Virus record (IMG/VR): IMGVR_UViG_3300043449_002688
Coordinates: 1 to 64,000 of that record
Strand: one strand, 5' to 3'
DNA from: a virus
Length of the DNA stretch: 64,000 nt
The translations under genes were made by a program, and so were the position numbers. The notes under the pieces are model-generated. The model searched no databases and had not been told where the DNA came from. It saw nothing but the letters and a program-made list of their open reading frames with translations. Shown here piece after piece: positions 4,107 to 33,293 of this stretch (its first letter is position 1; each line of letters begins with the position of its first letter).

Positions 4107-4108
4107 AA

Positions 4109-7893: not shown

Positions 7894-9291
7894 TTAGTAC
7901 AAGTTGTCTACGATTACGTTCTTGCGAGGCTGATAGCCAGCAAGTGTCAAGAAGCGGAAGTGCGCTTCAGGAACGCTTAGATCGCTGATAGCAAGCTTCA
8001 TACGGCTGTATGGAGCAAGTTCATGGAATCCCCAAGTATCTTTTTGTACAAGGTAGCCTGTTACGAAAGCAGGAGCTTTGTTACCAAGATCTACGAATAG
8101 AGTAGTAGAAAGTCCTGAATTTTTAACTCGACCGATGTATTTAGCAGCGCCTTCAGAAGAGCCGCGATACACGTTAAAGTGAGTCGCGCCTGCTACGTTA
8201 GCGATTGTAAGCTCTACGCGGTTTCCAGCAGAAACTGCAGCAGTAGTAACTGCTTTGTAAAGACCTTCACCGATTTCGTTTTCAGCCGTTACAATATAAA
8301 CGTGTCCTGATGCAGATGGAGGAACCATTGCGCCAGAGCCAGTTACAGATGCAGTAAGGGTAGCTGGAGCAGCAGGTGAGCCGATCTGTGGACGAAGAGG
8401 AGCTGTTTTACCAGAAAGGAAACGAGAATCCTCAATAGCTACAGTACCGTTTGATACCCACTGACGACGAAGATCAGCACCTGAAGCGTCTTGAGCAGAA
8501 CCGCTCAATACGATACGTTGAATGCTGTTTGCGCCAGAACCAAGAGCAATTGCTTTGTTGTAGCCAGAAAGAACAACTGGGTCAACAAAGAGAGTCTCGG
8601 CTTTACCCATGTTCATGCGTGAACGAAGGGCAGCGTCTTCTACGATAGGTTGATCAAGTGCGCCATTCTTAGAAAGAACAACTGATTGATTTGAACCGTA
8701 AGAAGCAAACATAAGATCTTGAGTAGAAACAAGAATATCCGACATGCGGATTTGTGAATCTACGCCAAGCATGCTTGGAAGTTCAGGCATTGCAAGAGGG
8801 TTTCCGTCGAAAACACCGTTGTTTGAGAAGTCTGATTTACCTTTGAAAGAATCAAACTCGATGTCACCGGCAATTTTCATTGTGATATTTTCTGCTTCAC
8901 GATCTTCAGCCTTAACACCGTCGATAGTTTCCATCATGTTTGCTGCAACTGTTACACGAGTAACTGCGCTGTAGAAACACATTGGAACTGTCGCTCGAAT
9001 GTAATCGCCAACATTTACGTTACCGACTGCACCTTCGCGCTGAGCTGAACCACCAAATCGTCCATAAGACAATTGACGGTTGAATTGAACAAGAAGCGAT
9101 TTTGCTTTCTTGGTTGAGAAGAGTTTTTGCAATTTGATGTGGCTATCATCAAAAGTCACATTATGCATAACTGCTTCTAGGTTTTCGATCTGGAGTGCAG
9201 AACCTTGCACCAATTGTGAGGGAGCGGTATTATAGTTACCTGCCTCCAATGTTTTAACCAGACCTTCTAATGTTTTAATAAGGTCATTCAT
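7894..9291 (-). CDS. Major capsid protein, SPO1/Twort (Herelleviridae)-style, with an Ig/FnIII-like insertion
   Basis: N-terminal K-TLEAG...GSALQIENL arm; IEFDSFKG; PAAPATLTA...YIVTAEN...FNVYRG; ends PRKNVIVDNL; distinct codon bias; position after scaffold and before a strong terminator. Confidence 0.9.
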   Translation of the reverse strand: MNDLIKTLEGLVKTLEAGNYNTAPSQLVQGSALQIENLEAVMHNVTFDDSHIKLQKLFSTKKAKSLLVQFNRQLSYGRFGGSAQREGAVGNVNVGDYIRATVPMCFYSAVTRVTVAANMMETIDGVKAEDREAENITMKIAGDIEFDSFKGKSDFSNNGVFDGNPLAMPELPSMLGVDSQIRMSDILVSTQDLMFASYGSNQSVVLSKNGALDQPIVEDAALRSRMNMGKAETLFVDPVVLSGYNKAIALGSGANSIQRIVLSGSAQDASGADLRRQWVSNGTVAIEDSRFLSGKTAPLRPQIGSPAAPATLTASVTGSGAMVPPSASGHVYIVTAENEIGEGLYKAVTTAAVSAGNRVELTIANVAGATHFNVYRGSSEGAAKYIGRVKNSGLSTTLFVDLGNKAPAFVTGYLVQKDTWGFHELAPYSRMKLAISDLSVPEAHFRFLTLAGYQPRKNVIVDNLY

Positions 9292-9292
9292 T

Positions 9293-10126
9293 TTATTTTC
9301 CTCCCTTAGAGTTAATCAATTTAGCAACTTCATCTACGCCTTCTTTATACAAGAAAAAGCGATTAATTGTTTCACGTTCTGATTTAGACAATGAGCCTGT
9401 TTTAGCAAGTTCATTTGCTTTTTTCTGAATTTCTTCAGAAGTTAGCGGTTTTTTTGCAAAAGTTTCTTCGCCTTTTGCAATGAATTGCATATCAGTCACA
9501 CTTTTGCGTTGAGGTCTTGCAAGGGTTTCAAACGCTTGAGTGATAACCTTTAAAGCTTGGTCTTGTTCTTGAATTTTCTTTTCAAGAGCAGTAATCTTTA
9601 AAGATTCTGATTTTTGCATTTCAGGTTGTTCCATTTCTGGTTGACCTTCCATTTCAGGTTGTTCCATTTCTGGTTGACCTTCCATTTCAGGAGCTTGTTG
9701 CTCGTCTTGAGCATACGCTTGTCCTAGTACCTCTCGAATTACTGAAAAATGTCTTTCCAATTCTTCTGGAGGCATGCTGCTGTAGATCTGACCTAATTCT
9801 TCATCAGAAAGAGGTTGATCTTCGCCTTCATCTTGAAGGGCTTCTTCGCCTTCCATTTCTGGCTGATCTTCCATTTCTGGTTGACCTTCCATTTCTGGTT
9901 GACCTTCCATTTCAGGTTGTTCCATTTCTGGTTGACCTTCCATTTCAGGAGCTTGTTGCTCGGCAGGAGCGTCTTCTAGAGCAGGCGCAGCATCTTGTTC
10001 TCCTTGTTCCTCGCCTTCATCTTCATCTTTTTTAAGAGAAGATTTAGCAAGACTTTCAGCTTTCGCCAAAGTGTTTTCAACAGAAGAAATCAAATTGTCG
10101 ATATCCTGTTCAGTCCATTTGTTCAT
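9293..10126 (-). CDS. Probable capsid scaffolding protein
   Basis: Very acidic and helical, several LxK-S/A sites, directly upstream of the capsid gene. Confidence 0.7.
   Translation of the reverse strand: MNKWTEQDIDNLISSVENTLAKAESLAKSSLKKDEDEGEEQGEQDAAPALEDAPAEQQAPEMEGQPEMEQPEMEGQPEMEGQPEMEDQPEMEGEEALQDEGEDQPLSDEELGQIYSSMPPEELERHFSVIREVLGQAYAQDEQQAPEMEGQPEMEQPEMEGQPEMEQPEMQKSESLKITALEKKIQEQDQALKVITQAFETLARPQRKSVTDMQFIAKGEETFAKKPLTSEEIQKKANELAKTGSLSKSERETINRFFLYKEGVDEVAKLINSKGGK
9617..9963 (-). repeat. Two blocks of 15/18-nt tandem repeats encoding QPEME(G)
   Basis: ccatttctggttgacctt / ccatttcaggttgtt units at about 9617-9704 and 9851-9963. Confidence 0.9.
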
Positions 10127-10624: not shown

Positions 10625-10678
10625 TTTAATCCTCCTAAATTTAGGTAAATAGTTTTTTGGTTTGCAAAACCCATATAT

Positions 10679-10688
10679 AAGTATTAGG
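10679..10688 (-). promoter_or_regulatory. Variant late promoter CCTAATACTT
   Basis: One-base insertion variant of the motif, upstream of the capsid operon. Confidence 0.4.
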
Positions 10689-10718
10689 CTTTACTATAAT
10701 ATTTACTTTTTGTCATAT

Positions 10719-10727
10719 CCTAATCTT
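10719..10727 (+). promoter_or_regulatory. Putative late promoter element CCTAATCTT
   Basis: Exact motif upstream of the GIY-YIG-like ORF. Confidence 0.55.
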
Positions 10728-10780
10728 TCAATTAGTTGATTTTAATAAATTTTATGTTAAAACAATAGAAAGAGGTGGTT

Positions 10781-11233
10781 ATGATTACGGTTTTTCAATG
10801 TATTTTTCCTGACAACAAACAGTTTATAGGTAAAACAAAATTGCCATTAAAAAAATTTATACATCAAACTACCTTAAGGGCTAATAATAAGCCAAATACC
10901 ATATTTTTATGGGCTTTAAATAAAGCTAAAGGAGATGTTAAGTGGATAGAAATAGGAAGTTACTGGTCGAGCGTAGAAGCAAATGGCGTGTACAATAATT
11001 TAGTTAATGTTAATCAGACTTATGATAGAAATTTTGGGTATAATTATCTTACTAAAAATGGCAATAATTGGAGTCAAAAACAATCTGCTGCCGAAAAAGC
11101 AAGCTTATCTAGGTTAAGAACTAGATTAAAAAAGCTTTTACTTGCAGTAAACAATAAAAAACTTGCTAAAAGTATTGAATCTGTTATTTTGAATACAGAA
11201 AAATATCTTAAAACTATTAAGGATTCAAAATAA
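10781..11233 (+). CDS. Degenerate GIY-YIG-like protein
   Basis: TVF..(10)..FIGKT, ALNK, FGYN pattern; canonical Tyr, Arg and Glu missing. Confidence 0.55.
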   Translation: MITVFQCIFPDNKQFIGKTKLPLKKFIHQTTLRANNKPNTIFLWALNKAKGDVKWIEIGSYWSSVEANGVYNNLVNVNQTYDRNFGYNYLTKNGNNWSQKQSAAEKASLSRLRTRLKKLLLAVNNKKLAKSIESVILNTEKYLKTIKDSK

Positions 11234-11660
11234 CTACTTTAACCACTACGGCTTCATTAGATATTTTATCTTTTCCAAAAATTTTATAAGAATTGCTGTC
11301 TGTAGATTTATTAACGCTTTCTTCTAAGGTCTTTAAACCGCGTTTTCTAGCCCAATCTAAAGCAGCTTTTTTTACTTTTTCATTAACTTTAGCTCCAAAA
11401 TCCATTTTAATTGTGCCATCGTCAAAAAAAGAAGCTGCAATTTGATGTTTTTTAAGTGATTTTATAGTTTCAATATCTTTAACCGCTTTTTCTACGGTTG
11501 ATAAAAGCTGCTGATCTGTTACTTTAGGAGTTTGTTGACGTAATTTTTTAATCCATCTATAATAGCGATAGCGCAATTTTGGCGGTAAAGCTTTTTCTAA
11601 GCTAGACATTTGCATTTCTTGTGTTAAATCAGCCGACAATGAATCTATATCTTTATTCAT
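11217..11660 (-). CDS. Hypothetical protein, possibly head-internal
   Basis: ATG at 11660 with GGAG RBS and CCTAATCTT upstream; LEKA/VEKA/VNKS sites. Confidence 0.6.
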   Translation of the reverse strand: MNKDIDSLSADLTQEMQMSSLEKALPPKLRYRYYRWIKKLRQQTPKVTDQQLLSTVEKAVKDIETIKSLKKHQIAASFFDDGTIKMDFGAKVNEKVKKAALDWARKRGLKTLEESVNKSTDSNSYKIFGKDKISNEAVVVKVVILNP

Positions 11661-11676
11661 AAAAACTCCGTAATAA

Positions 11677-11685
11677 AAGATTAGG
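11677..11685 (-). promoter_or_regulatory. Putative late promoter element CCTAATCTT
   Basis: Exact motif 16 nt upstream of ATG 11660. Confidence 0.6.
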
Positions 11686-14600
11686 GTAAATCTAAATACC
11701 AGCAATGCGATGGAAGTCCTAATTTTTTAACCTTAGAAAGTAATTTTGGGTTATAATTAGGATAATCTGTATAATCGCATTTTTTAAAACCATATTTTTC
11801 TGGCATTCCATCGTAAATTTCTACTATTCTTGGGTTAATATGTTTTTTGCTGTAGCTTGCATAAATACCATTAACTCGGCCTCCGCCAGACATTTCAGAT
11901 CTAATTCCATGGCCATGAATATATACTTTTTTAATTCCATGTGCTTTGGCATTTTGTAAAACTGCTTCAATTGAAGCTTTTTGCCAATTAGCAAACGCCT
12001 CATCTATTTTAGACATATGTTTTTTAATTTCTTCTGAGGTTACGATAACATCGTCTAATTTAAGCCCAGAAGGGGAATTTTGAAGCAAGTATTTAATATT
12101 TTTTCTAAATTTTTGAGCTACATCAGATTGAATTTCTTCTATAATCCAAGCATCTTTATTAGATACATCAACTCTTGACCAAGCAATTAAATGTGGAGTT
12201 GTTGGATGTAAGCCTACGTCTTGTCCTTCAATTCCGTTTGAATGTTTTAAAATAAATTGATACAGCGCCCAAGTTTTGGGGTCTTTTGAAAGTTCATTAT
12301 CGGCTTTTTGTGATGTATTTATTTGTACAACTAAATTTGGATTTTTATTGTTGTGCCTTTGCATCCCATCCCAATCTGAAAAAGTAACATGAAAAGAATT
12401 AAATTTGTCTTTTTCATCAGCTTGAGCTAAAAGATGAGTAAAATCTTCTGGAATAGCAGGTTTGTTGTTTTTGCTCATAAATACACTTTTAACTTCTTGC
12501 AAATTTTCATATTTAGGAAATTTTCTTTTAAATTCAGGCCAAGTAATTCCATCCAAAGGAATGTTTTTGATTACTTCGTAAATTTTTTCTTTAGATTTAC
12601 TTTCAGCCAAAATATCTCTTTGCATTTTATTTGCAGATATTCCGTATGATTCCATTTTTGGCGGTATGCTAGGAGGCATTTCTCTTAATAGTTTTGATCC
12701 ATGAATAGGATTTAAAAATACCGAAGGGAATCTACTGCCAGATGAAAAAGTAAAACTATTTTCTTTAACTGTTAACGAAAAAATGTTTTTAATGCTTTGG
12801 TAAGAAATTTTTGGGTTTTTTGATATGTCATTTACTAGTTTTTTGTTTTCTAAGTCATTTACTAGTTTTTTGTTTTCTAATTTATTAAAATTTTCTGTAA
12901 TTTTATTTGCCAAATAATCAGCAGTTTTATTAGATATATGCTTATTATCGATCAATCTGCCTATTACTTTATTTAATTCAAAAGAATTTTCTTCAAAAGA
13001 ATTTAAAGCTTTTTCTGCCATTTTGTCTGTGATAAAAGGAGAATCTAAGAATTTTCCTGAATATTCAAGGTCAAATAGCCCACCTTCTTTTAAAGATTTA
13101 TCAAAAAGATCATTAATTAAATCTTGACCGCCAGTGCCATTTTCAATGCATATATCTTCAGCTACTCTTTTTTCTAATGAAGGTAGTTTTTTTAAAATAT
13201 TTTTTACAGATTCTGCATTCATAAATCTTGAGCCTAACCTTAGTCCTTGATGTATTGCGTTGGAAAGATACATTGGCATTTGTTCTTTGGGATCTGATTT
13301 AGTTATCAAAGCATCCATAATTTTAGGGCCATGGGCTTTTAAGGCTTCATTATCCATTTTTTCAAACCAATTTGTTAACTGACGACAAAAATCGGGTGTA
13401 TTTTCATCTAAGGCTGACTTTATGTTTATTGGATTCAACATTTCTGAACTAATAGAAGTTTGAAATAGCATATATGGATATTCTGGGTGTTCATTTGAAA
13501 TTTTTTGCCAAACTTCAGGATTAACATTTTCTGATTTTTCAATTAGTCTTGTATATGTAGGCAATAGCTTGTCTTCTTGTCCAGGCATTTTTTCTTGGAG
13601 TTTTTTCGTTACAGAAAAAGTATTAGATAAATCTTCTCCATTAATTGGCATTTTTGCCGATTGTATGCCATCAATTGCACGAAATACAGAATTTATATTT
13701 TGTTCGTTTTCTAAATCTCCAATATTAAGATCTAAAATTTTATGACCAGCATCGCAAATTGATTTTATGGCATTTGAATATGAATTAAAAGTTTCTTTTT
13801 GGCCAACCATATCATCTTCTAAAGACGAGCCCCAAAATATAGTTGACATTGTTTCTATTTTAGAAGATAAGCTGTCGATTAAACTTTGAGAATCAACAAT
13901 CTCAGAATATTTATTAGGATTTTTAGATACATCTGAAAGTTTTTCACTTAAATGATCAAGCAACGGAGAAACATGTGTTTCAAGAAAATTATCTTTATTT
14001 AAATTGATATAATTATTGATATCTTTTTCTGGTAAGGCTCTTATTAGTTTAGTTAAATCTTGATGTTTTGTTGCAGAATTTTGCATTAATTTTGATAAAA
14101 CAAAATCTTTTCCTTTGAATTTTCCATAAATAGTTTCAAGTTTAGACCCTAAATCTTTAAAGCTTTCTGTATTATCAGATGTAACAATTCTATTAACCAA
14201 AACAGAAACGGTATTGCTATTCATGTTTTCAATAGAATTAATTAAAGAATTAAACCTCCAGCCAGATGTAGATTTTTCTAAAATTTCTTCATCATTAACT
14301 AAATTTTCACTTAAAATAGGAAGAGATTGAGCTGAAATATATTGATCTTCTGGCAAATTTAAATATATAGATTTTTTATCTTTTTCTGACAAAGATTCCA
14401 TTTTTAAAGAACGACTTAATATTTTATTGCTTCTTTCTTTTGTTTCTGGAAAAGTAGCATATTTTTGTAAAATAGAAGCAAAGAACCCGGCTTTTCCTTG
14501 ATCAGCATCTGAAAAAGATTGACTAATTTTATCTAAATATTCATTTTTTAAAACAGATGTTTCTTCATCTGATTGAGAATGTAATTGAATAGAATTTTCA

Positions 14601-17600: not shown

Positions 17601-18127
17601 TTATTAACTTTGTTTTGCTCTTCGCTTAAATTTTCTCCATATGAATGCTGTGGTTTTGTTTTTAATATATTTAAATAAAAATTAGGGTTAAGATTCATTG
17701 ACTCATAATGTGGAATAGAACTAGCTTCATGTGAGTCATCATCAATATCTTTTAAAATACGTTGTTCTAATGGAGATAGATCTAAATTTGAATGTTTTTC
17801 AGTTAAATGTTGAATTAAACTATAAGGTATATCTTCAGATTGAGAAGAGTTGTTAATGACAGTATTTGCATGATTAAGCGTCCAGCTAGGATGATCTGTT
17901 AAAGCTCTTGTGATTTTATAATGATGCATTAAATCTTCTGGAGAAGAAAAGTTTTCATAAATTTTGTTAAAATTTTCTTGATTTAAATTAGGATGAGAAA
18001 TAGCACTTTCAATACTATCTTGATCTTCATTAAGATATGAATCTTTTTTTTCTTTAGCTTTAGGAATAAGATCATTTAAATATGTGCTGATTTCTTCCGG
18101 CGTAGACTGATCATGCAGTTTATTCAT
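11681..18127 (-). CDS. Giant helical-repeat protein with a C-terminal EEIQSD / GNAT-like domain (polyvalent-protein-like)
   Basis: About 2148 aa; LRV/HEAT-like repeats (ALRNPKLP, LSKNPALT, AIVHENAD, ALHHENAD); C-terminal AWSRVD..IIEEIQSD..AVLQNAKAHGIKKVYI..YDGMPEKYGF. Confidence 0.6.
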   Translation of the reverse strand: MNKLHDQSTPEEISTYLNDLIPKAKEKKDSYLNEDQDSIESAISHPNLNQENFNKIYENFSSPEDLMHHYKITRALTDHPSWTLNHANTVINNSSQSEDIPYSLIQHLTEKHSNLDLSPLEQRILKDIDDDSHEASSIPHYESMNLNPNFYLNILKTKPQHSYGENLSEEQNKVNKKALKHSIIGLEGAIKTQKHTPESLKETLNLLMDKEINKIPTSKYYGFSYETEDDQFDYLTDFVNNQKGLTKDQLNLIYQKALERPTTDISNWRNNELPTAILEHENVDPMLLAKTARSSKESYHDSKISSALRNPKLPHEVIDAILQNDEELSEKNYGLSKNPALTKEHLNHLLDKGYGRQAIVHENADDELHKKFWENTNKTTEDANDILSSDKVPAEILKELVGHKNKNVAIKALHHENADKEVVQAGLNRKMKDVQDAARKHPLVANQELKKGFLEGKVKLSSILTKKQESEHFNKLTPEEKAHAYEKISEKLKGTNIEEIKDKSKEDIEHIFKLKYHLASSPDVPEHIKTQNAEDIVEAFKVPHNFTDFSFRSSQPDSYDSFNNLIKDGNKKAEDSALNKIGYLLNLNTHFKNEKDKSSLSSRFLNKAFEKIQNSKNQTVLNRFGIPQPIEENQILENLKNISQFPNLSEENFEKYINKDFGPASAKYLKSEWDAKNGTILDSRYGNLSDEEKAEKFSKYLTPKHAFAVAASGTAPQDLKDKAFEMLTPDEKHDLVVDRSNHLVGFSSEILKNALFGKYNYPDESITYTEKLKNKDFTSYEKNALKLLDNNNEEDKNTLDSYLNHLKDQQRPSDHNISHYLNLNWLRNNSDIFKKHAHSYPNLYLDSINETIYKKVNHKKISQDEALDFLKKEANDFVAGSSNPQESAHQFWENVLENYDQTKNNAIGEILGHNYKMQNTNGKLDFLVELGKENKQIKNLLLSKNILSESKKEELRNTFSNFGEYLDSLDTSTRDKIMSTTLDSWKNGKIFPKKQDVEHFLDRATPESLTGEILYRNIRLNTSLAASYVEKVKFLSNLIDQHSLSTEHHSDLIMNSLRPLSQKNKDLVGNLLVEDVLNTPNSPDKIKTFYKETNQIATLSAKTLGKLGDFAAKANDINFLVKLYKNDNAPKSLSTKITKIIENSKELDPQNIINISDLYSHPQFTLSSIKKTNAAFENSIQLHSQSDEETSVLKNEYLDKISQSFSDADQGKAGFFASILQKYATFPETKERSNKILSRSLKMESLSEKDKKSIYLNLPEDQYISAQSLPILSENLVNDEEILEKSTSGWRFNSLINSIENMNSNTVSVLVNRIVTSDNTESFKDLGSKLETIYGKFKGKDFVLSKLMQNSATKHQDLTKLIRALPEKDINNYINLNKDNFLETHVSPLLDHLSEKLSDVSKNPNKYSEIVDSQSLIDSLSSKIETMSTIFWGSSLEDDMVGQKETFNSYSNAIKSICDAGHKILDLNIGDLENEQNINSVFRAIDGIQSAKMPINGEDLSNTFSVTKKLQEKMPGQEDKLLPTYTRLIEKSENVNPEVWQKISNEHPEYPYMLFQTSISSEMLNPINIKSALDENTPDFCRQLTNWFEKMDNEALKAHGPKIMDALITKSDPKEQMPMYLSNAIHQGLRLGSRFMNAESVKNILKKLPSLEKRVAEDICIENGTGGQDLINDLFDKSLKEGGLFDLEYSGKFLDSPFITDKMAEKALNSFEENSFELNKVIGRLIDNKHISNKTADYLANKITENFNKLENKKLVNDLENKKLVNDISKNPKISYQSIKNIFSLTVKENSFTFSSGSRFPSVFLNPIHGSKLLREMPPSIPPKMESYGISANKMQRDILAESKSKEKIYEVIKNIPLDGITWPEFKRKFPKYENLQEVKSVFMSKNNKPAIPEDFTHLLAQADEKDKFNSFHVTFSDWDGMQRHNNKNPNLVVQINTSQKADNELSKDPKTWALYQFILKHSNGIEGQDVGLHPTTPHLIAWSRVDVSNKDAWIIEEIQSDVAQKFRKNIKYLLQNSPSGLKLDDVIVTSEEIKKHMSKIDEAFANWQKASIEAVLQNAKAHGIKKVYIHGHGIRSEMSGGGRVNGIYASYSKKHINPRIVEIYDGMPEKYGFKKCDYTDYPNYNPKLLSKVKKLGLPSHCWYLDLP
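12827..12880 (-). repeat. Perfect 27-nt tandem duplication (LENKKLVND x2)
   Basis: gtcatttactagttttttgttttctaa occurs twice. Confidence 0.95.
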
Positions 18128-18731
18128 TTGAATCTCCATATTTTAATGCATAAAGCATTTTTTTGCAATATTCTGGATCTTCAGCGCCAGAATAATCTTT
18201 ATTCTCTATTTCATAATCATATGATTTTGTTGATAAAGATCTAATTTGTTGCAGCTCTGATTGCCTTTTTTGTACTGCCTCAAGCATTTGTTTAGATATT
18301 TTACGCTCTGTAGAATCTGCAATAACAGGTTTTTCAAAATTAGTTGGAAAAACAGGAATTGGATTTGATGGATCTGACTTTCTTGCTACTTTAATTTTCC
18401 CAATTTTTATAGCATCAAATAAACCATCTTTTTCTTCTTGACTAAGAAGATTGTTATTTAAAACAACGGTATGGCCATCAGTTGTAATTTCAACTATATC
18501 TCCATTATCTAATATATATCTTAAAAGATTTACTGTAGGAGAATGATCTTGCGTTAATTTTAGTATTGAAGAATTTTTAACATATTTTAAAACTTGATCA
18601 AATGTTTTAAACTTTTTAGCAATTTTTCCATTTGTATTATCAACAAAAATATCCACTGCCTTTCCGTCAGTTCTGATTTCGGCTAAAGGATAAGGGCTGT
18701 TGATTGATATAAGTTTGTAAACCTTAAACAT
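18120..18731 (-). CDS. Hypothetical protein in the head module
   Basis: GGAGG RBS; overlaps both neighbours. Confidence 0.7.
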   Translation of the reverse strand: MFKVYKLISINSPYPLAEIRTDGKAVDIFVDNTNGKIAKKFKTFDQVLKYVKNSSILKLTQDHSPTVNLLRYILDNGDIVEITTDGHTVVLNNNLLSQEEKDGLFDAIKIGKIKVARKSDPSNPIPVFPTNFEKPVIADSTERKISKQMLEAVQKRQSELQQIRSLSTKSYDYEIENKDYSGAEDPEYCKKMLYALKYGDSNE

Positions 18732-20418
18732 TTTTGCCTCCAAACATTACATCGCTGGAAACAAGCTGTCCGGCTTTTCTTAAAGAATAATTTTTATTAA
18801 TGTAATTTTGATAATTTTTTAAATTTTTAACAGCACCTTTTACTTTGTTTTTATCTAATCCAAGCTTTAACATGTGTTCAGCAAGTTTAGCTGGATCTAA
18901 AGAATTTAGCCATTTGTGAGCTTCTGGATGTGCAGGGTGATCTGCATATGCAGTTTCTTGAAAATAAAAACCATGGTCTGGATTTGCTGTTTCAGGATTC
19001 ATAGCTAAATCATTATCAATATGATATAAATTTCCTTTTTTGTCTAGCATAATATTTCCAGAATGTCTGTCTAGATGGCCTAAAATATGATCCATCATCA
19101 TAAGCTTATGTAAATCGCCTGATTTAAAATGCTTATCTAAATGTTTTTCTATTTGAGAATTGTCCATTTCAAGCGGCGTCTTTGCATCTGGAATATGAGC
19201 CATAGCCGAAAAATTGCCAGTATGAAGCTCTGGATGAGCAAACATTGCTGTTGTTGGAACATTTTTTCCTAACCCAAAATAGTCTTTTGCTAATCTATAA
19301 TAAGAAGAAGCATTATGGGCAGTGTCACCAAAATCTCCAAAACCTACGTCACCTGATTCTGGTTTTTTTACTAAAACTCGTGTACCTGCATCGTTTTGTA
19401 AATCATATAATGATCTAGAGAATTCTTTATGGGAAGGATGAAATTCTTTTGCAGGTTTAAACGAATGCTGCATATAAAGTCCTTCTATAAGCTCATTTTG
19501 GTCGTCATCGTGAGCTATATGTCCATGAGATTTTCCAATTCTTTTTAATTGAGGTTTTGGCAAACCTTTTTTTAAAGCAAGGTCTTCGGCTAAATCTACA
19601 AAAGTGTCAATATATTCATCTGATACTTCAGGTAAAGCAGCTTTTATTATTTCTTTTAAAGGTCTTTTTCTATTCCAATCTCTAACTGCTGCTTTTACTC
19701 TATTTTTTCTATTGTCAATATATTCACGGCTAAGGGCTGCACCACCAACTAAAGCAGAAGGAGCAATATTGCCCATTCCTGCAGTTAAAGTTTTATTTAG
19801 ATCTTCTAAATGTTTAAATAATGTATCTGGAGTTATTTTTTCTTCTTCGGTCAATATAGATGAATCTAGCTCTAATAGATTAATAGCTTCGTCTATATTT
19901 TTAGACATAAATTCTATAGATTTTTTTACTTCTTCTGATTTAGCATCTTCATAAAGATCTGCAATCGCTGTTTTATTGCAACTTCTTAAAGTCATAGCAA
20001 CTCTACGACCTACTGTTTGCTTAAGTACGTTGCCATCTCTTTCTAAGGTTGCTCCTTCAATAGAAAAACCAACTAGCATTTTTTCTTTTTTAGAAGCATA
20101 GTATCTTACCATGGCAGCTACTGCTATAGCGCCTGGATGCTCTTGATCATCAAATAGCTCGCCTATAATATAAACGTAAGGTTTTTTAACAAAATCCCAA
20201 TATTTTCTTTGCCTTTCGTTTTCGCAATCATCTTTTTTAAGGATTTTTTTAGCATAGATTACGGCACCAACAATATCTTCATGTTTATTGGAGTGCTCAA
20301 AGTTAAGGACACCTTTGCCTTCAACTAAATCAGATATGTCATGATTTTCGATAATTAAGATTTCTCCTGAACTATCTATATGTTCAGATGTAGCAATCCC
20401 ATCTACTTTTAATCCCAC
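18724..20418 (-). CDS. Prohead protease fused to a PI3K/PI4K/HipA-like kinase domain
   Basis: N-terminal GIATSEHIDSSGE, LNFEH, GFSIEG (HK97/S78-type); C-terminal VLVKK, DHILGHLDRHSGNIML, YHIDND. Confidence 0.85.
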   Translation of the reverse strand: MGLKVDGIATSEHIDSSGEILIIENHDISDLVEGKGVLNFEHSNKHEDIVGAVIYAKKILKKDDCENERQRKYWDFVKKPYVYIIGELFDDQEHPGAIAVAAMVRYYASKKEKMLVGFSIEGATLERDGNVLKQTVGRRVAMTLRSCNKTAIADLYEDAKSEEVKKSIEFMSKNIDEAINLLELDSSILTEEEKITPDTLFKHLEDLNKTLTAGMGNIAPSALVGGAALSREYIDNRKNRVKAAVRDWNRKRPLKEIIKAALPEVSDEYIDTFVDLAEDLALKKGLPKPQLKRIGKSHGHIAHDDDQNELIEGLYMQHSFKPAKEFHPSHKEFSRSLYDLQNDAGTRVLVKKPESGDVGFGDFGDTAHNASSYYRLAKDYFGLGKNVPTTAMFAHPELHTGNFSAMAHIPDAKTPLEMDNSQIEKHLDKHFKSGDLHKLMMMDHILGHLDRHSGNIMLDKKGNLYHIDNDLAMNPETANPDHGFYFQETAYADHPAHPEAHKWLNSLDPAKLAEHMLKLGLDKNKVKGAVKNLKNYQNYINKNYSLRKAGQLVSSDVMFGGKNV

Positions 20419-21375: not shown

Positions 21376-23403
21376 TTATTCTTTTTTATCTTTTAAAGAT
21401 TCCGCAATCTTGACAATTGCTTTTTTAGATTCTTTTTTCCAAGTATCCATATGCCGGTCTACCAATTGCTTATGTCTTTCTAATAATTGTTTAGAAATAG
21501 TATTATGATTGTCTTGGACATTTTTTTCTAAAAGTTGATAATTTACTGCAAGTTGCTTTTCATTTTTTTGCATTTCTGATTGATCTTGTTGCGATTCTTC
21601 TTGCATTTGACCTTCTTGTCCCATTCCAGCCGCCGCTTGCTGCTGCATCATCATTTGCTGTTGCATTTGCTGTTCTACCATCATTTGTTGTTGCATTGCC
21701 ATTTGAGCTTTTTGCAATAAAATTTGCTGATATTGAAACCAAAATGGATCTCGAACATATTGATATCTAGGGTCACTTGCAGCACCTTTTCTTCCAAAGA
21801 AATTCTCTAAAATTTCGCCCACAGTTAAATAAGTTCCCAAAATTTGTTGGAACTGTGGATTCATTGGAAAATCGCCGCCAATTTCCTTTGGAATTGGATT
21901 TTTTTCTACCTGTTCCATGACTTCATTGTAGGTCATATGAACAGCCATATCTTGTTGCAATCTAGTTGCTTCTTTTTCTGGAGAATCTTTTTCTAATCCA
22001 GCCAAAATAATTTGATGAGTTTTAGCTAATTCTTCATCAATATGAGGCAAAATATGTGTGTTTAAAAAATCCTGCAATTCATATATAAGCGGTCTTAATC
22101 CAACGTCTCTTGCTGCAGTTAATTTCCATTCATTATCTGATTCAGAAAGCGCTTGCGTATTTGTTCCGCGAGCAAGATGTGCATATCCTGGAAGTTCTTC
22201 TGGAGAAATTTGGAAAGAAGAAAGAATTGTTCTTGCGTTATTATCCAAAAGATATTGAAATTCTGCATCGCGTCCAGAAGTATCAATTGCTTGCCAAGCT
22301 AAATCGTCAGATGTGCCGACTCCAAAAACTGGCATTCTCCATGAATTTTGAACAGAATTTATAGATTGATGAAATTGTAATCGAATTCTTTGAACTGTTC
22401 CTTCATCAATGTCGTCCGATTTAAATACTAGCATTCCTCTAGCAGCACGACCATGTTGAAAATAAAGCTTATTGTGTACAGTGATATTAATATGCGTCGT
22501 GATTGCGTTTAAAGCTTGGTCAATTGGAGTAAGCGGATATCCATTGTATTCAACGTTTGTAGTTGGATACATATTATGAACTACTAATTCTTCCGCTGTA
22601 AAAGCTTGAACTGGCTTTCCTTCAATAGTTTGAACCCAGCGATATTCATCTTTTTTATATTTTTCAACATCAAATCTTTTATTTTTCATTTGCTGTAGCA
22701 TTCTTAATGCTTCAGCTCTTAAAGATTGATCTTTTTCAGATTGTGGTAAAATTTTATATATAGTACCTGCGTCTACAGCTCTAAACGCATACATATATTT
22801 TTTGCCGGTATTTTTATTTATACCCCAAATTCTTTCTACGGCAAAACGGCCATATCCTAATCCATCTCTTGTAATTAATTTAAATAATTGAGAAAGATTA
22901 ACTTTATCAGTTTCTTCGTCTTCTAAAGTTCCATGCCCGCAATTCCAAAGAACTTTTTTTACTTTATCTATTTTTTCTTGCAATGCTCTCTGTTCTTCTT
23001 CAGAACGAACAGCATTTTTGTCCATGTCTTGAAACTCAAATCCAACAGCAAATCGATGTGGTCTTGGGCGACCAAAAGCAGAGGCGTGATTTGATCTTGC
23101 TTGTAAAATTTGGCAAACTAATTCATCGCCTTGTGGACCTATAACTCTTTTAATAATATGATCTGGAGTTAATCCAGTTTTCATCCGATAAAAACCATGC
23201 ACTCCTGCAAAGTTTTTTTGCGGATCTACTTCAAATGCCATTCTTTCCATTTCTTGAGCAGAATGGGTTTGTAAAGACTTTAAAATCATTCCAAGAACAG
23301 AGTCTGGTTTAATATTAGAGTCCTGCTCTTCTTTTTTAAGAAGAGCGTCGGCATTTGGATCTATAGCTATTGCTGTTTTCTTTTTTGGTTTTTTATCGTC
23401 CAT
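21376..23403 (-). CDS. Portal protein
   Basis: VDAGTI, GYPLTP, YFQHGRAARG, DAEFQ, FQISPEEL, GLRPL; Q/M-rich tail; position after terminase. Confidence 0.9.
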   Translation of the reverse strand: MDDKKPKKKTAIAIDPNADALLKKEEQDSNIKPDSVLGMILKSLQTHSAQEMERMAFEVDPQKNFAGVHGFYRMKTGLTPDHIIKRVIGPQGDELVCQILQARSNHASAFGRPRPHRFAVGFEFQDMDKNAVRSEEEQRALQEKIDKVKKVLWNCGHGTLEDEETDKVNLSQLFKLITRDGLGYGRFAVERIWGINKNTGKKYMYAFRAVDAGTIYKILPQSEKDQSLRAEALRMLQQMKNKRFDVEKYKKDEYRWVQTIEGKPVQAFTAEELVVHNMYPTTNVEYNGYPLTPIDQALNAITTHINITVHNKLYFQHGRAARGMLVFKSDDIDEGTVQRIRLQFHQSINSVQNSWRMPVFGVGTSDDLAWQAIDTSGRDAEFQYLLDNNARTILSSFQISPEELPGYAHLARGTNTQALSESDNEWKLTAARDVGLRPLIYELQDFLNTHILPHIDEELAKTHQIILAGLEKDSPEKEATRLQQDMAVHMTYNEVMEQVEKNPIPKEIGGDFPMNPQFQQILGTYLTVGEILENFFGRKGAASDPRYQYVRDPFWFQYQQILLQKAQMAMQQQMMVEQQMQQQMMMQQQAAAGMGQEGQMQEESQQDQSEMQKNEKQLAVNYQLLEKNVQDNHNTISKQLLERHKQLVDRHMDTWKKESKKAIVKIAESLKDKKE

Positions 23404-24438: not shown

Positions 24439-26304
24439 TTATTCGTCGTTACCGCCAAAATCCCAAAAAACAGAGCCGCTATTACCTTTTTCACTACCAG
24501 AAGGGCCTGTAGCAAGTTCTCTTGCTTTTTGAGTAAGCCAATCTTCGTATTTTCTTTCTGTTATATTATTTGCTATCTGTGTATTATTTACATTGCTTAA
24601 TGGATTATATACTTGTCCTTTTTTCTTTGGTTGAAAAAGGTTTTGAGCCATGTATCTTAATGAATCTGCAACGTCTGCTACTTCAGAATCATCTGGCTCT
24701 TGGGTTAAATTGCCGTTTGAGTCAAGCAAAAAGCAGTGTTCGGCGAATACTTTTAATAGCCAGTCGTTTCTATCATGTCGAATTACCTTAAGCCTTCTAC
24801 GCCCTGTAGCGTCGATAATTTGGCCCCTTACGGCAGATATTCCGCCCATAATATCTTTTTTAAATTCTCCGCATGGCATTTTGTTGTTTTTAAAAGCCTT
24901 AATAAACATTGGCTGAGCGGTATCGCAAAACCATTTTTTAGGCCTATACATGTCTCGTATACTTTTTGCCAAATCCATCATCTGTTCAAATTCTAACCCA
25001 GAAACAGAATAAGTGTCAACTAACCACCATTCTCCATTTGGCATTATTGCAGACACAGTTATTGCAAATGCATGTCTAAAGCCCCAATCTGTTCCGCAAT
25101 AAAACTTAATATCTTTTTTATGTAAACTTTCTATTAAAAAAGGTAATGTTATGCCTGCTGGAGCTTTATCGCCAGTAAAAGCTTCCCATGCTTGGGCTAA
25201 AGTATATGTATTGCCATCAATATCTTTATTTAAAAACCTTGGATATACCATACCGGCTGAAGACGGTTTCCAGCACATAAGCTGTGCTTCAGCTAAATCT
25301 GGGTCTGTTTTTTTAAATTGAGATATGGTAAAATCTATAGGTTTCCATAATCCGCCCTTATCAGAATCTTTTCTTTCTGCAAGTCTGCCGCGACAAACAG
25401 GCAAAAGAGAACATGTAGCGCATCCTCCCATAGCTTCAAATTTATCAAATTTTTCTTGTTCTTTATTGGTTAAGCTTATGTATTCTGATTCAATTATTGT
25501 TTTAAGAGGCAAGCTTTGCGATAAATATAAGGTTTGTAAAGGTAAATCTGGCCTATGCCTTTCCGTAGGACACTTTTCGGTTATATCAATAATATTCCAT
25601 CTTCGAACTTTATATCCATTTTTAGCTGCCTTTTCCATTTCTTTGGAAAAAAGCCCTCCAGGGAATTTCATTGTGGAAGTTTTAATAGTAATTGGGTATT
25701 GTCCATTGAATACCCCTGGAATCATTTGAGCTTCTTTATAAGCTCGTATGCCTTCTTGAGATCTAATAGTATCAATTTCGTCTATAGTAAATAAATTGGT
25801 GTGAGAAGAGTTTGCTCCTGTAATAGTGCAAACAATAATTTTCATAAAAGAAACTGTGCCATCTGGATTTTTAATTGAAATTTCTTTTGCGTTTTGGGAA
25901 TTTAAAGCTCTATTGTGATATTCAAGGTATGGTGCTACTTTTTCCATAAAAGAATTAATATATTTTTGTGCAGCAGTAGCTTGAGGAACAATTGCTGCCA
26001 TATGAGCTAAAGTAGCGCCAAAATGTATCATCATTATAACGCCAAAAACTGCTTCAGAAAGAGTTTTATAGCTTTCTCTTGATGAAATTACTATAATTTC
26101 TGGGTTTATATTCCCTTCATTTTTTTTATAACTCATGTAAGTTTCATACATCCAGTCTATTGGGCTAGAATTTGAATCAGGGTCTACCCATGAGTCTGGA
26201 AAATCTAATTCTAAAAAAGTAGAAATCCAATTTTTAATATGATCTTTTGTTTCAAATTTAGCTAAAAATACCTTTGCTAATAAAGGGTCTACAATGTTTG
26301 CCAT
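24439..26304 (-). CDS. terL: Terminase large subunit
   Basis: SRESYKT (Walker A variant), TIDEID (Walker B), GTDWGF, CDTAQP, DVADSLRY nuclease motifs. Confidence 0.9.
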   Translation of the reverse strand: MANIVDPLLAKVFLAKFETKDHIKNWISTFLELDFPDSWVDPDSNSSPIDWMYETYMSYKKNEGNINPEIIVISSRESYKTLSEAVFGVIMMIHFGATLAHMAAIVPQATAAQKYINSFMEKVAPYLEYHNRALNSQNAKEISIKNPDGTVSFMKIIVCTITGANSSHTNLFTIDEIDTIRSQEGIRAYKEAQMIPGVFNGQYPITIKTSTMKFPGGLFSKEMEKAAKNGYKVRRWNIIDITEKCPTERHRPDLPLQTLYLSQSLPLKTIIESEYISLTNKEQEKFDKFEAMGGCATCSLLPVCRGRLAERKDSDKGGLWKPIDFTISQFKKTDPDLAEAQLMCWKPSSAGMVYPRFLNKDIDGNTYTLAQAWEAFTGDKAPAGITLPFLIESLHKKDIKFYCGTDWGFRHAFAITVSAIMPNGEWWLVDTYSVSGLEFEQMMDLAKSIRDMYRPKKWFCDTAQPMFIKAFKNNKMPCGEFKKDIMGGISAVRGQIIDATGRRRLKVIRHDRNDWLLKVFAEHCFLLDSNGNLTQEPDDSEVADVADSLRYMAQNLFQPKKKGQVYNPLSNVNNTQIANNITERKYEDWLTQKARELATGPSGSEKGNSGSVFWDFGGNDE

Positions 26305-30539: not shown

Positions 30540-33088
30540 CCTATCTCCTGAACTTCACCAAGCTGATTGTAAATAGCCATTCGAGCATTACAATGCCTTT
30601 CCATTGATGGAGAACCTTCGACTTTAAAATCAAAAATAAAAGCATCTTTTTTATTATCTGTAACTCTAGTAGCTCTGCCTATTCCTTGTTTAACTTGAAT
30701 TTCCGATGTTCCGCCTTGCAAGTAAATTAAAGCCCCAGTAGGTTGAAGGTCTACTCCAGTAGAAATAGCAGAAGTTCCGATAATAAGTTTGGTTTCGCCT
30801 TTATTAAATCGTTCTACAATTGCTTCAGTGTCTGATTTCCAGTATTCTTTAGGAACAATATCTTTTAAGTTAGTTCCATCGGCATTTTGTCTGTTTGATA
30901 TTCCGCCGTGAGCAAATTCAAAAGGAACAGTAATATAATTTTTTAATTGCATAAACTGAGCGAATTCATCTATCAAAATAACTGTTTGTCTGTTTAGCAA
31001 ATTAACGCATTTATGTGCAATTTCTCCAGCCAACTTATTGACGTTTGGATTTAAATAAAGTTGTTGTCTTGTTTCTTTATTAATATCATTTGCTCCAGAA
31101 AACCCATGCGATTGAACTTTAAATATTTTAAAAAAAGGTCTAGAAAGATATCCTTTTTCTACTAATTCTTTAAAATCTTTTCTGTAAACTGTAGGACCTG
31201 TAATGCCTTTTAAAATCATTTCAGAGCCATCGGTTCTAATTTGTGTAGCAGATACAAAAAAACGATAATAACAATCTTTTAAGAGATTCATTACAACTTT
31301 TTCAAAAGTCTCTGCTGGGGTAGTATGACAATTATGTGCTACGATTCCTGTAGCGCCCGATGAAACTATAAAATTATGATTATCTTCAACTTCTATATCG
31401 TAAAGGTTAGATAAATATTTTTTTCTTTTTGGCAAATTAAATGAAAATTTTTCAACAGATACTACTTGTGAGTATCCATATTTACTTTTTTCAGGAATCC
31501 ATTTGTATGTTCCAACAAGATTTTGAAATCTTTTTGAAATTTTATAAGAAAGAGAAGGGTGTATATAATTTGATATCTTTTTGCTTAAAAGATTGTAACC
31601 TTCTTTGCTAAAAAGAATATACTTGTATCCTTTATTGACAGCAACTCGACATTCAATTCCTTTATTTTTAAACCAAGTGACAATAATTTCTTGAGATTGA
31701 TCGTCAAAAGATGATGTATGTAATTCGCCTCTATTGTCGCCATTTCCGTATCCATCATCCATAAACCATACGGCTAGCCCTTTATCATTTACATTTTCTA
31801 AAAATTCTTTTGTTATTTGTTTTTTTCTTTTTTCAAAAGGCAATTTTGAATAAAAAAGTTTTGTAGAAAAACGGTAAGCTGGTTTTTTTGCATATCCATT
31901 TTTTTCAATAAATTCTATATTTTTGATTCCTAAAAGATTTGCTCCCCATTTTAAGTAATTTAATTGTTTTGCAGAATGAATAACTCTCATTCTTATTCCA
32001 TTTTTATGAATAGAAATTGAACCGTCTCCCAAATAACTGCCTAAGATATATTGTTCTGAATCGCCTAAATATTCTGGAGAAAATGAACTTTTTTTATCAT
32101 TAACATTTCCTAGTATAAAATGTTTTTTTGTAAGATCCCCAGCTTTTACCCAACCTAAATTTGTTAATATTTTATGATCAGAAGTGCAAGAAAAGGTGGA
32201 ATTTGAACACCTTACTTTTACCATATTATCTTTTTTTTCTCTTTTCCACGTATTAGTTATTGTTTTATATTCAAATTTTTTTTCTATTTCGTTAAAAGAT
32301 AAAACTTTAGGAAGAGGTTTGCCTTTAATAAAATTATTATGCAATGTGCTTATTCTTATTGGGCCTTTTTCTGTTGCTATTTTTGTATCATAAGGAAAGC
32401 ATTCGTCCCATATTAAAACGTCTGTTTTGGTTAAATTATTCCATTGCTCTGAACCTTCTTCAACTCTTACTAAAGCTTGAGCTGTAGCAACAGTAAACAA
32501 TTTGTCTATCTCTTTTTTACCATCACCATACTTACCAATATATTTTTTACCAAAAAGTTTAATAAATTCTTTGTAAAGTTGATCTGTAATTGAGGCAGAT
32601 GGCGTAGCAATTATTGTTTTAAGGCCTAATCTTTTACAGAGTTCATAAATTATCCGACTTTTGCCTGAACCTGTAGGCAATTCAATTGCTCCATGACGCG
32701 CTTTTATAAGCTCTTCAACTGCTTCGCTTTGATAATCTCTTAAGAGTTTAGGTTGAGATGCCCAAGGAATTAGTTTACCTTCATCCAATTTATTTAAATT
32801 ATTGGTTAAATCCCAGTGAAATCTATTTTGTAAATCTTTATAAAGACCAGAATAAGTATATGGGTTGCCGGAATCATCATAAAACAACAAACATTTTTGC
32901 ATTTCAGACTTAAGTTGATCAAGCCTTTGATTAAAGCTATCTGGATCTGAATTTGCCCAACGATAATTTTGTTTTAATTTTTTAATTTGATAATCAACGC
33001 CGCGATCTCTAAATGTAAGAAAATTTTTTACTTCTTCTGAATCAGAAGGAAGATAAATCTTTGAAAAATCCATAAAAGACAATTTCAT
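30536..33088 (-). CDS. SF2 DExH helicase (UvsW-like) containing an intein
   Basis: LRDYQ, PTGSGKS, WDE[intein]CH, SAT, TGVD, QGIGRATR. Confidence 0.9.
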   Translation of the reverse strand: MKLSFMDFSKIYLPSDSEEVKNFLTFRDRGVDYQIKKLKQNYRWANSDPDSFNQRLDQLKSEMQKCLLFYDDSGNPYTYSGLYKDLQNRFHWDLTNNLNKLDEGKLIPWASQPKLLRDYQSEAVEELIKARHGAIELPTGSGKSRIIYELCKRLGLKTIIATPSASITDQLYKEFIKLFGKKYIGKYGDGKKEIDKLFTVATAQALVRVEEGSEQWNNLTKTDVLIWDECFPYDTKIATEKGPIRISTLHNNFIKGKPLPKVLSFNEIEKKFEYKTITNTWKREKKDNMVKVRCSNSTFSCTSDHKILTNLGWVKAGDLTKKHFILGNVNDKKSSFSPEYLGDSEQYILGSYLGDGSISIHKNGIRMRVIHSAKQLNYLKWGANLLGIKNIEFIEKNGYAKKPAYRFSTKLFYSKLPFEKRKKQITKEFLENVNDKGLAVWFMDDGYGNGDNRGELHTSSFDDQSQEIIVTWFKNKGIECRVAVNKGYKYILFSKEGYNLLSKKISNYIHPSLSYKISKRFQNLVGTYKWIPEKSKYGYSQVVSVEKFSFNLPKRKKYLSNLYDIEVEDNHNFIVSSGATGIVAHNCHTTPAETFEKVVMNLLKDCYYRFFVSATQIRTDGSEMILKGITGPTVYRKDFKELVEKGYLSRPFFKIFKVQSHGFSGANDINKETRQQLYLNPNVNKLAGEIAHKCVNLLNRQTVILIDEFAQFMQLKNYITVPFEFAHGGISNRQNADGTNLKDIVPKEYWKSDTEAIVERFNKGETKLIIGTSAISTGVDLQPTGALIYLQGGTSEIQVKQGIGRATRVTDNKKDAFIFDFKVEGSPSMERHCNARMAIYNQLGEVQEIG
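31331..32401 (-). mobile_element. 357-aa intein with a LAGLIDADG homing endonuclease, inserted in Walker B (DE|CH)
   Basis: Starts CFPYDT; block B TSDHKILT; LGSYLGDG and LAVWFMDDG; YDIEVEDNHNF; ends AHN before Cys+1. Confidence 0.93.
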
Positions 33089-33188
33089 ACCCCGATTGTC
33101 TCAAATTTTACATGTAAATGCAATAATTTATTGATGTTTTATTAATGTTTTTAAATAAAAATTGCCGGCGGCGTCTGTTTACGTATTA

Positions 33189-33278
33189 AATATGTCACCT
33201 TAGTAAACTAATAACATTCTGTAGTAATTACATTCAATATTACTAACGTAGTTAAATAGATTACTAAAGTGACATATT
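33189..33278. repeat. 22-bp imperfect inverted repeat, candidate replication origin or operator
   Basis: aatatgtcaccttagtaaacta (33189-33210) versus tagattactaaagtgacatatt (33257-33278), 20/22 match; at the coding-strand switch. Confidence 0.75.
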
Positions 33279-33293
33279 CTTTCCTTTTACAGG

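Follow-up and report, generated by a model that had tools for sequence, protein, structure and literature searches.

A prohead protease carrying a copy of the capsid N-arm and a type II PI4K-like kinase domain in an uncultivated Mx1-like phage

Why should a phage encode the protease of its assembling head and a kinase as one protein? The question is raised by a single unbroken open reading frame (ORF) of 564 amino acids (aa) at positions 18724-20418 (minus strand) of IMG/VR record IMGVR_UViG_3300043449_002688. The record comprises 154,801 bp, is 96% complete according to CheckV and derives from a freshwater metagenome; it represents a freshwater Mx1-like phage of ~155 kb that has not been cultivated. 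Among the sequencing runs listed, one DNA run from fresh water may be the source, a second shared a small part of the sequence words, and none was of RNA. The stretch analysed here, hereafter the window, is its first 64 kb (64,000 nucleotides). A preliminary description, made from the letters of the window alone, had divided the ORF into a prohead protease, a copy of the capsid arm and a kinase, and had proposed that the arm docks the protein on the inner shell while cleavage frees the kinase for packaging and possible ejection. The three-part anatomy stands, with every motif in its place: LNFEH at residues 38-42, GFSIEG at 117-122, the arm segment beginning LNKTLTAG at 207-232 (nt 19723-19800), VLVKK at 348-352, LDRHSGN at 449-455 and HIDND at 466-470. 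The interpretation built on that anatomy is supported in part: the kinase fold, the family-wide arm and the variable cargo are upheld, and the specific cleavage sites are not. Our overall reading, which we think has about an even chance of being correct, is that a protease bearing a mimic of the capsid arm carries a PI4KII-like kinase into the prohead and perhaps on to the host.

By the features examined, the protein belongs to the SPO1/HK97-type prohead serine proteases. The PHROG family phrog_1028 ('head maturation protease') matches residues 5-247 (E 1.6e-8), and a tblastn search revealed 42% identity over residues 3-284 to the 'putative prohead protease' of phage Mx1 (E 1e-61), together with matches to SPO1-group proteases at E ~1e-4. 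His42 of LNFEH and Ser119 of GFSIEG, by analogy the probable catalytic pair, are invariant in an alignment of 90 homologues and are kept in all 120 homologues among the matches listed. Residues 1-160 have a pLDDT > 90 in the full-length AlphaFold2 model, and this model has many matches among the predicted viral structures of BFVD whose names are those of prohead or capsid maturation proteases, at E 1e-9 to 1e-6, as well as one that carries a Nudix name. No Pfam protease family was found in the ORF at E <= 0.01. A sequence search of solved structures returned matches to the kinase catalytic loop only and none to a protease, and no solved-structure match was obtained for the protease domain alone. 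The homologous domain with its conserved His and Ser is shared with SPO1 gp3.2 and with Herelleviridae and HK97-type proteases (phrog_1028, COG3740). The gene is also placed as in SPO1, whose neighbourhood comprises portal, protease, scaffold and capsid: it has portal/MuF on one side and scaffold/capsid on the other.

The C-terminal domain gives a confident model of the PI3K/PI4K type with its catalytic residues intact, as its earlier designation as a kinase had implied. Pfam PF00454 (PI3_PI4_kinase) matches residues 409-511 with an E-value of 2.5e-12 (47.6 bits against a cut-off of 27.1 bits), and AlphaFold2 modelling of residues 290-564 from 88 sequences yielded a pLDDT of 92.9 and a pTM of 0.92. 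The top Foldseek match of this model is a type II PI4K (4hne_B; E 3.9e-8, probability 1.00). Exhaustive structural comparison (VIA) likewise placed PI4KII-alpha first (4pla_A; Z 18.9, rmsd 3.5, 249 of 275 residues aligned), followed by Fam20 (Z 13.4), H. pylori CtkA (13.2) and actin-fragmin kinase (12.5), and more distantly by HipT/HipA (Z 10.2-10.9), CotH (10.7) and the PI3Ks (Z ~10). We assign the domain to the PI3K/PI4K kinase superfamily; the solved structure nearest to it is that of type II PI4K.

Alignment of the motifs is in keeping with this assignment. The stretch DRHSGN...IDN (IDN at 467-469) aligns with the DRHNGN...HID stretch of PI4KIII-alpha, and Lys351 is presumed to be the ATP-binding lysine, its place in the modelled fold being deduced from the strand at 347-351. 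PI4KII-alpha and -beta are the best structural match by a clear margin and share the DRHxxN loop, but the identity to them is only 12-19% and the hosts probably lack phosphatidylinositol. The metal-binding Asp lies within IDN here as opposed to IDF in type III PI4K; type II PI4Ks also read IDN. HipA and HipT possess the same broad atypical-kinase fold, and a HipA_2 cluster stood at rank 15 in a feature search of the ESM Atlas; their structural match is, however, much weaker than that of PI4KII, no HipA Pfam match was found at E <= 0.01, and no HipB-like partner was seen. Judged from its sequence and model the kinase is apparently catalytically active. It would more probably act on a protein than on phosphatidylinositol: protein kinases (Fam20, CtkA, actin-fragmin kinase, HipA/HipT) make up most of the structural neighbours that come after PI4KII, and most bacteria do not contain phosphatidylinositol.

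The segment between protease and kinase resembles the N-terminal arm of the major capsid protein encoded in the same module. Recounting confirmed the 16 identities over 26 positions reported for capsid residues 11-36, which read as quoted, and BLASTP extended the similarity to 20 of 36 residues (protease 200-235 against capsid 4-39; E 7e-6 for the pair). A hidden Markov model (HMM) of the arm alone, run over the whole 154.8-kb genome, found exactly two copies, in the protease (E 1.9e-19) and in the capsid protein (E 3.3e-15), and no further copy, which would have suggested a general targeting signal, on any other virion protein. The copy is conserved in all 120 homologues among the matches listed. 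It is also family-wide, as the preliminary description had anticipated: residues 161-203 of SPO1 gp3.2, a protease of 256 aa that has no kinase and ends ~55 residues past the arm, match residues 15-57 of the SPO1 capsid protein gp6.1 at 21 of 43 positions (E 2e-12), and the protease arm of Mx1 matches its own capsid arm at E 1e-10. The window protein, unlike gp3.2, runs on from this point into its 275-aa kinase. The helical linker that follows the arm is retained in relatives without the kinase. Arm mimic and helical domain were part of this protease family before its SPO1-like and Mx1-like lineages parted, and the arm copy is older than the kinase. In a model without a partner the arm comes out disordered (pLDDT < 50 at residues 213-231), as expected of an extended arm that would become ordered on binding. 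Literature searches found no account of such arm mimicry.

Does the copy remain tied to the capsid arm of its own genome? The two arms were compared in 21 genomes with protease and capsid protein paired, over 26 arm positions and with 20000 shuffles. Cognate pairs share 16.9 of the 26 positions as against 14.8 for non-cognate pairs, a value reached in 0 of the 20000 shuffles, although shared ancestry inflates the test. In several genomes both copies carry the same rare change (Leu to Tyr in L027, L028 and L032; Ala to Val in L030; Tyr to Phe in Mx1), and such parallel changes in two genes call for gene conversion or for a constraint acting on both. Some differences are fixed: at one position every capsid protein has Gln, a residue never present there in the protease, which shows Gly in 18 of the 21 genomes, while at another the capsid protein always has Glu and the protease mostly Thr or Asp. 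Because it tracks the cognate capsid arm, we infer that the protease arm is a mimic engaging the capsid arm's own partner.

The same data can be read in terms of cleavage, the capsid N-terminus and the protease being cut at one shared recognition motif and no docking taking place. In both proteins the Glu that ends the arm (protease E232, capsid E36) shows little or no variation; cleavage after Glu is the habit of T4-type and phiKZ-type head proteases, and a cut after this conserved Glu would resemble theirs. Co-variation, too, is equally expected if both arms fit one active site. A cleavage site, however, would need far less than the 36-43 residues conserved here, and systematic differences between the copies, such as capsid Gln against protease Gly and capsid Glu against mostly Thr or Asp, also speak against it. 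We are inclined to doubt this reading, which is compatible with arm mimicry and does not exclude it.

The partner of the arm could be the C-terminal helix-turn-helix of the scaffold-like protein, a neighbouring capsid subunit or the active site of the protease. Docking on the inner shell, as first proposed, is one among several readings of the arm, scaffold binding or a shared protease recognition element being others. In P22 and 80-alpha the scaffold binds at the capsid N-arm. A complex prediction for the scaffold C-terminus with arm and linker (residues 195-290) scored 0.01, a result that weighs neither way.

The linkers may hold the places at which the modules are separated. The preliminary description placed cleavage at LNK-T or LKK-G; the residues concerned (L207, K209 and K284) are indeed conserved, but nothing marks this conservation as that of a cleavage site as opposed to structure. 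Another candidate is suggested by sequence, strictly as a lead: the AKSE just after the protease domain may be a self-cleavage site. Across 180 fusions K[ST]E occurs 71 times in the linker between protease and arm against 12.8 +/- 3.7 in shuffles, with a peak right after the protease domain, and 8 times inside the kinase domain against 11.6 expected, which is no enrichment. This distribution fits cuts between modules and not within them. As a genome-wide marker of substrates K[ST]E was rejected, no ORF being clearly enriched (scaffold z 2.8). Literature searches did not find the position of the cut in SPO1-type capsid proteins.

The fusion is widespread, occurring in hundreds of related phages. 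More than 100 independent clusters (90% identity) cover the whole query with the same full-length architecture at 33-77% identity and ~540-600 aa, mostly on contigs of 150-175 kb, so that it is no artefact of assembly. A search with the kinase part against 1.84 billion representatives returned 469 matches (50%-identity representatives), and domain order was examined in the best 150; ~60 of these show the order protease, arm, kinase in proteins of 530-1727 aa, the longer of which have 400-1000 residues of no known family between helical linker and kinase. In the homologues examined the kinase always follows the arm and helical module and is never N-terminal. UniProt, too, contains such a fusion, automatically named 'PI3K/PI4K catalytic domain-containing protein [uncultured Caudovirales phage]'. 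Two candidates for natural split forms with arm and kinase and no protease (P0123 and P0124) proved to be truncations at the ends of short contigs and were set aside.

The closest cultured relative is Mx1 (WNM70322.1; OR576727.2), with 42% identity in the protease region and 54% in the capsid protein. In its protein the modules follow one another as in the window protein, from protease through arm and helical linker to a kinase-like domain at the C-terminus (VDRNDGN ... HIDNA), but it is 1239 aa long, with an insert of ~700 aa without a Pfam family between linker and kinase, and has Asn in place of the catalytic-loop His452. Within its clade, cultured Mx1 included, the fusion is thus the normal state, and the enzymatic cargo is not the unusual part that it had been taken for. 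Literature searches found no paper describing a protease-kinase fusion, and the words protease, kinase, capsid and virion are all absent from the Mx1 genome note.

In other relatives the kinase is absent, replaced or supplemented. It is absent from SPO1 and from the relatives L007, L008, P0114 and P0122; in L007 and L008 the capsid protein is 71% identical and the protease stops after the helical linker, and in P0114 a GNAT acetyltransferase takes the kinase's place. Other relatives have His_Phos_1, GNAT or DUF5661 between protease and arm, and one has Radical_SAM. The idea that homologous proteases would bear varying cargo is thereby borne out, a module of roughly 600-1000 aa of unknown family being a further instance, and on sequence grounds the kinase behaves as accessory, modular cargo. 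Of 179 fusion representatives, 151 retain D450, 164 retain N455, 170 retain D468 and 124 retain all four key residues, so that most fused kinases are probably active; the corresponding D, N and D are kept in 69 of 69 family members without the protease.

A kinase of this fold was also seen in Halovirus HSTV-2 (KC117376, L040), an archaeal tailed virus, where gene 16 (10647-12119, 490 aa) matches PI3_PI4_kinase at E 1.5e-5 and its product is a structural match of the full-length model of the window protein. This gene lies between the capsid and tail-sheath genes and was not counted as the same fusion; kinases of this fold in structural modules may extend to archaeal viruses.

These observations can be assembled into a mechanism. 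The arm mimic would bring the protease into the assembling prohead or hold it in place there, and the precursor would be built in through its protease and arm module with the kinase as passive cargo. Entry of the kinase into the prohead through the fusion seems likely from the gene's architecture, because it is covalently joined to a protein that must be incorporated there. The protease would then cleave itself in the flexible linkers and separate the modules; the globular kinase of ~30 kDa, too big for the capsid pores, would stay in the DNA-filled head, from which it would perhaps leave together with the DNA at ejection and phosphorylate proteins of the host in the early phase of infection. 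In a Twort-like phage a homologous protease was detected in purified virions by LC-MS/MS (liquid chromatography with tandem mass spectrometry; PMC5618024), which indicates that this protease family can remain in the head.

Precedents exist for the packaging of enzymes by this general route. In MuF-fused toxins and polyvalent proteins, as described by Iyer, Aravind and colleagues (PMC5512222), a head-internal assembly protein carries variable enzymes, which presumably are packaged and injected; kinase and GNAT domains are among the known cargo. The carrier here, in contrast, is the maturation protease and not MuF, the portal protein or a polyvalent giant, and the kinase is PI4KII-like where that paper describes a truncated one of the Ser/Thr/Tyr type; the phrase 'prohead protease' occurs only once in the paper, and no protease-kinase fusion appears in the passages covered. 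The internal proteins and Alt of T4 are directed to the prohead core by a short targeting peptide, trimmed by the prohead protease and ejected with the DNA (background in PMC5512222). The putative targeting element of the window protein is instead a mimic of 36-43 residues of the capsid N-arm, and it occurs on only one other protein of the genome and not on a set of internal proteins. T4 capsid-targeting sequences are cut by gp21, and the ejection proteins of phiKZ and SPN3US are comparable. Like effectors of the T4 and MuF types, the present cargo is fused to a prohead-internal component and is variable (kinase, pseudokinase, GNAT, His_Phos_1, Radical_SAM, DUF5661, a large module of unknown family, or none), and it may be ejected. 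Enzyme cargo packaged in heads is already known; the present protein differs in its carrier, the protease, and in its likely address, the capsid-arm mimic.

Several points weigh against this reading. In ~30% of the sampled fusions at least one catalytic residue has been lost and the domain kept; such pseudokinases with a retained fold point to a non-catalytic role, possibly structural or binding, and, as far as sequence can tell, count against a purely catalytic effector. The proposed cleavage sites are conjecture, and the co-variation test is not fully corrected for shared ancestry. No immunity-like partner was identified for the kinase. Finally, P0138, a stand-alone kinase of the same family, lies in the replication module of another large phage, so that the kinase family is not tied to packaging.

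The pseudokinases, which keep the fold at the same position, lend weight to a morphogenetic or structural role. The kinase fold would act in the producer cell or the prohead, either as a core or scaffold-like filler or as a kinase timing assembly through scaffold, capsid or head proteins, and would then be digested and lost. Precedents for kinases in the timing of assembly are CotH, which phosphorylates in spore coats, and F10 in vaccinia; CotH and Fam20 are among the structural neighbours listed above, and a very acidic scaffold containing Ser and Thr is encoded nearby. Fusions of protease and scaffold are known in P2 gpO and lambda C/Nu3. A very similar capsid is nevertheless built without the domain in SPO1, L007, L008, P0114 and P0122, a separate conserved scaffold gene is present, and the occurrence of unrelated enzymes (GNAT, His_Phos_1, Radical_SAM) within the same protein is hard to square with a fixed structural role. 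We consider such a role possible and somewhat unlikely.

Alternatively, the fusion might do nothing beyond coupling the expression and amount of a late-phase cytoplasmic kinase to those of the head genes, the enzyme acting on host or phage proteins in the producer cell, ahead of incorporation or in its absence, and its packaging being irrelevant. Stand-alone family members do lie in non-structural modules of other large phages, and the same genome has an unfused paralogue of 433 aa with the motifs DRHLGN and AIDH. Fusion to a protein sequestered in the prohead would, however, take the kinase out of the cytoplasm; the fixed position of the kinase after arm and helical module and the conservation of module order across wide divergence also speak against this explanation, which we regard as improbable. 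The unfused paralogue is encoded outside the window (G000:C1:153353-154654, minus strand; L041:3353-4654). On a circular reading of the contig it lies ~8-9 kb downstream of the capsid gene, beside an ORF of 351 aa with a transglycosylase-like ES motif. A similar second kinase lies downstream of the capsid gene in loci L006 and L010.

The features of the locus are collected in Table 1. All genes of the head module lie on the minus strand, in the order terminase, a 326-aa ORF, portal, MuF-like, protease-kinase, a 207-aa ORF, a 2152-aa ORF, two small ORFs, scaffold-like and capsid.

Table 1. Features of the protease-kinase gene and of the surrounding head module (window coordinates).
Feature	Position (nt)	Strand	Basis or remark
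Terminase large subunit	24439..26304	-	phrog_5653, E 3.4e-10
Portal protein	21376..23403	-	PF04860; phrog_15361, E 1.8e-23
MuF-like minor head protein, 284 aa	20505..21359	-	phrog_115 and phrog_4728, E ~3e-4; conserved in relatives
Whole protease-kinase gene P0001, 564 aa, GTG start	18724..20418	-	Pfam, PHROG, homologous clusters
Prohead serine protease domain, residues 1-160	19939..20418	-	phrog_1028, tblastn, model, BFVD, invariant columns
Linker, residues 161-199	19822..19938	-	pLDDT 40-67; AKSE at 159-162 (K[ST]E at 160-162)
Arm copy, residues 200-235, L.KTL.AG..N.APS.L.GG.AL..E	19714..19821	-	BLASTP, arm HMM, conservation, co-variation
Conserved helical linker, residues 236-289	19552..19713	-	W248, P253, K259 and K284 invariant
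Type II PI4K-like kinase domain, residues 290-564	18727..19551	-	Pfam, AlphaFold2, Foldseek, structural comparison
VLVKK, N-lobe Lys351	19363..19377	-	K351 kept in at least 90% of alignment A2 and in 134/179 fusions
Catalytic loop DRHSGN (Asp450, Arg451, His452, Asn455)	19054..19071	-	Aligns with PI4KIII-alpha DRHNGN loop; R451 and N455 invariant in A2
HIDND, Asp468 as metal-binding Asp (DFG equivalent)	19009..19023	-	D468 invariant in A2; kept in 170/179 fusions
207-aa ORF	18120..18743	-	Conserved in nearest clade only
Giant ORF, 2152 aa	11681..18139	-	Position between protease-kinase and capsid genes
Probable scaffolding protein, 277 aa	9293..10126	-	Directly upstream of capsid gene, as SPO1 gp3.3
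Major capsid protein P0002, 465 aa	7894..9291	-	phrog_752, E 6.8e-33; PDB 9vel Gp6.1, E 5.7e-17
Capsid N-arm, residues 4-39, original of protease copy	9175..9282	-	BLASTP, arm HMM

The 207-aa ORF, for which no Pfam or PHROG family was found, overlaps the end of the kinase gene by 20 nt and the start of the giant ORF by 20 nt, and these overlaps at both its ends suggest that the three genes are translationally coupled. The giant ORF also has no Pfam or PHROG match. Its place is kept in the nearest clade, its identity between relatives being ~26% where the capsid protein is ~80% identical, and it is absent from L007 and L008, relatives that also lack the kinase; this pattern could be that of a rapidly evolving virion protein, either internal or ejected. 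The scaffold-like gene is conserved in 31 of 31 related loci. Its acidic product contains two blocks of tandem repeats (PEMEGQ / PEMEQ) and has a helix-turn-helix-like C-terminus with the motif KS(D/E)R..IN.F in 28 of the 28 relatives aligned. SPO1 gp6.1, a protein of solved structure (9vel), is a homologue of the window's capsid protein, to which the Mx1 capsid protein is 53.6% identical.

Other properties of the window were recorded. The G+C fraction is 0.43 across the capsid and scaffold genes (8001-10000) against ~0.30-0.33 elsewhere, a rise that may stem from the acidic repeats or from a base composition typical of strongly expressed genes. At ~33000-33300 the GC skew and AT skew flip sign and the coding strand changes from minus to plus, the late head genes running leftward and another module rightward from this divergent point. 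ARAGORN found no tRNA genes in the 64-kb window. An ORF of 363 aa at 3054-4145 (minus strand) joins an HNH/endonuclease VII-like N-terminus (phrog_3118, E 6.8e-11) to a ClpP-type protease (PF00574, E 2.9e-31), and several of its PHROG matches also bear the label 'head maturation protease'. By these sequence matches, the late region holds a second protease, unrelated to the protease-kinase.

The locus bears on the question of how a separately encoded maturation protease enters the prohead, for which mimicry of the capsid arm, co-evolving with the capsid, is a concrete proposal; this mimicry is conserved from the Bacillus phage SPO1 to the myxophage Mx1. With the protease as carrier, a third route of enzyme loading would stand beside MuF/portal fusions and T4-style targeting peptides, its cargo here being a type II PI4K-like kinase from a bacterial virus. 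More tentatively, and with less expectation that it will hold, we propose that arm mimic and helical linker form a portable, co-evolving address tag by which the SPO1-like/Mx1-like lineage loads the protease and any fused enzyme (kinase, phosphatase, acetyltransferase or radical-SAM enzyme) into the prohead, that the protease frees the cargo, and that a PI4KII-like protein kinase is delivered with the DNA into the next host cell. If true, phages of this kind would possess a natural and programmable means of packing enzymes into capsids, and a tag that worked on foreign proteins would be usable for packing these as well.

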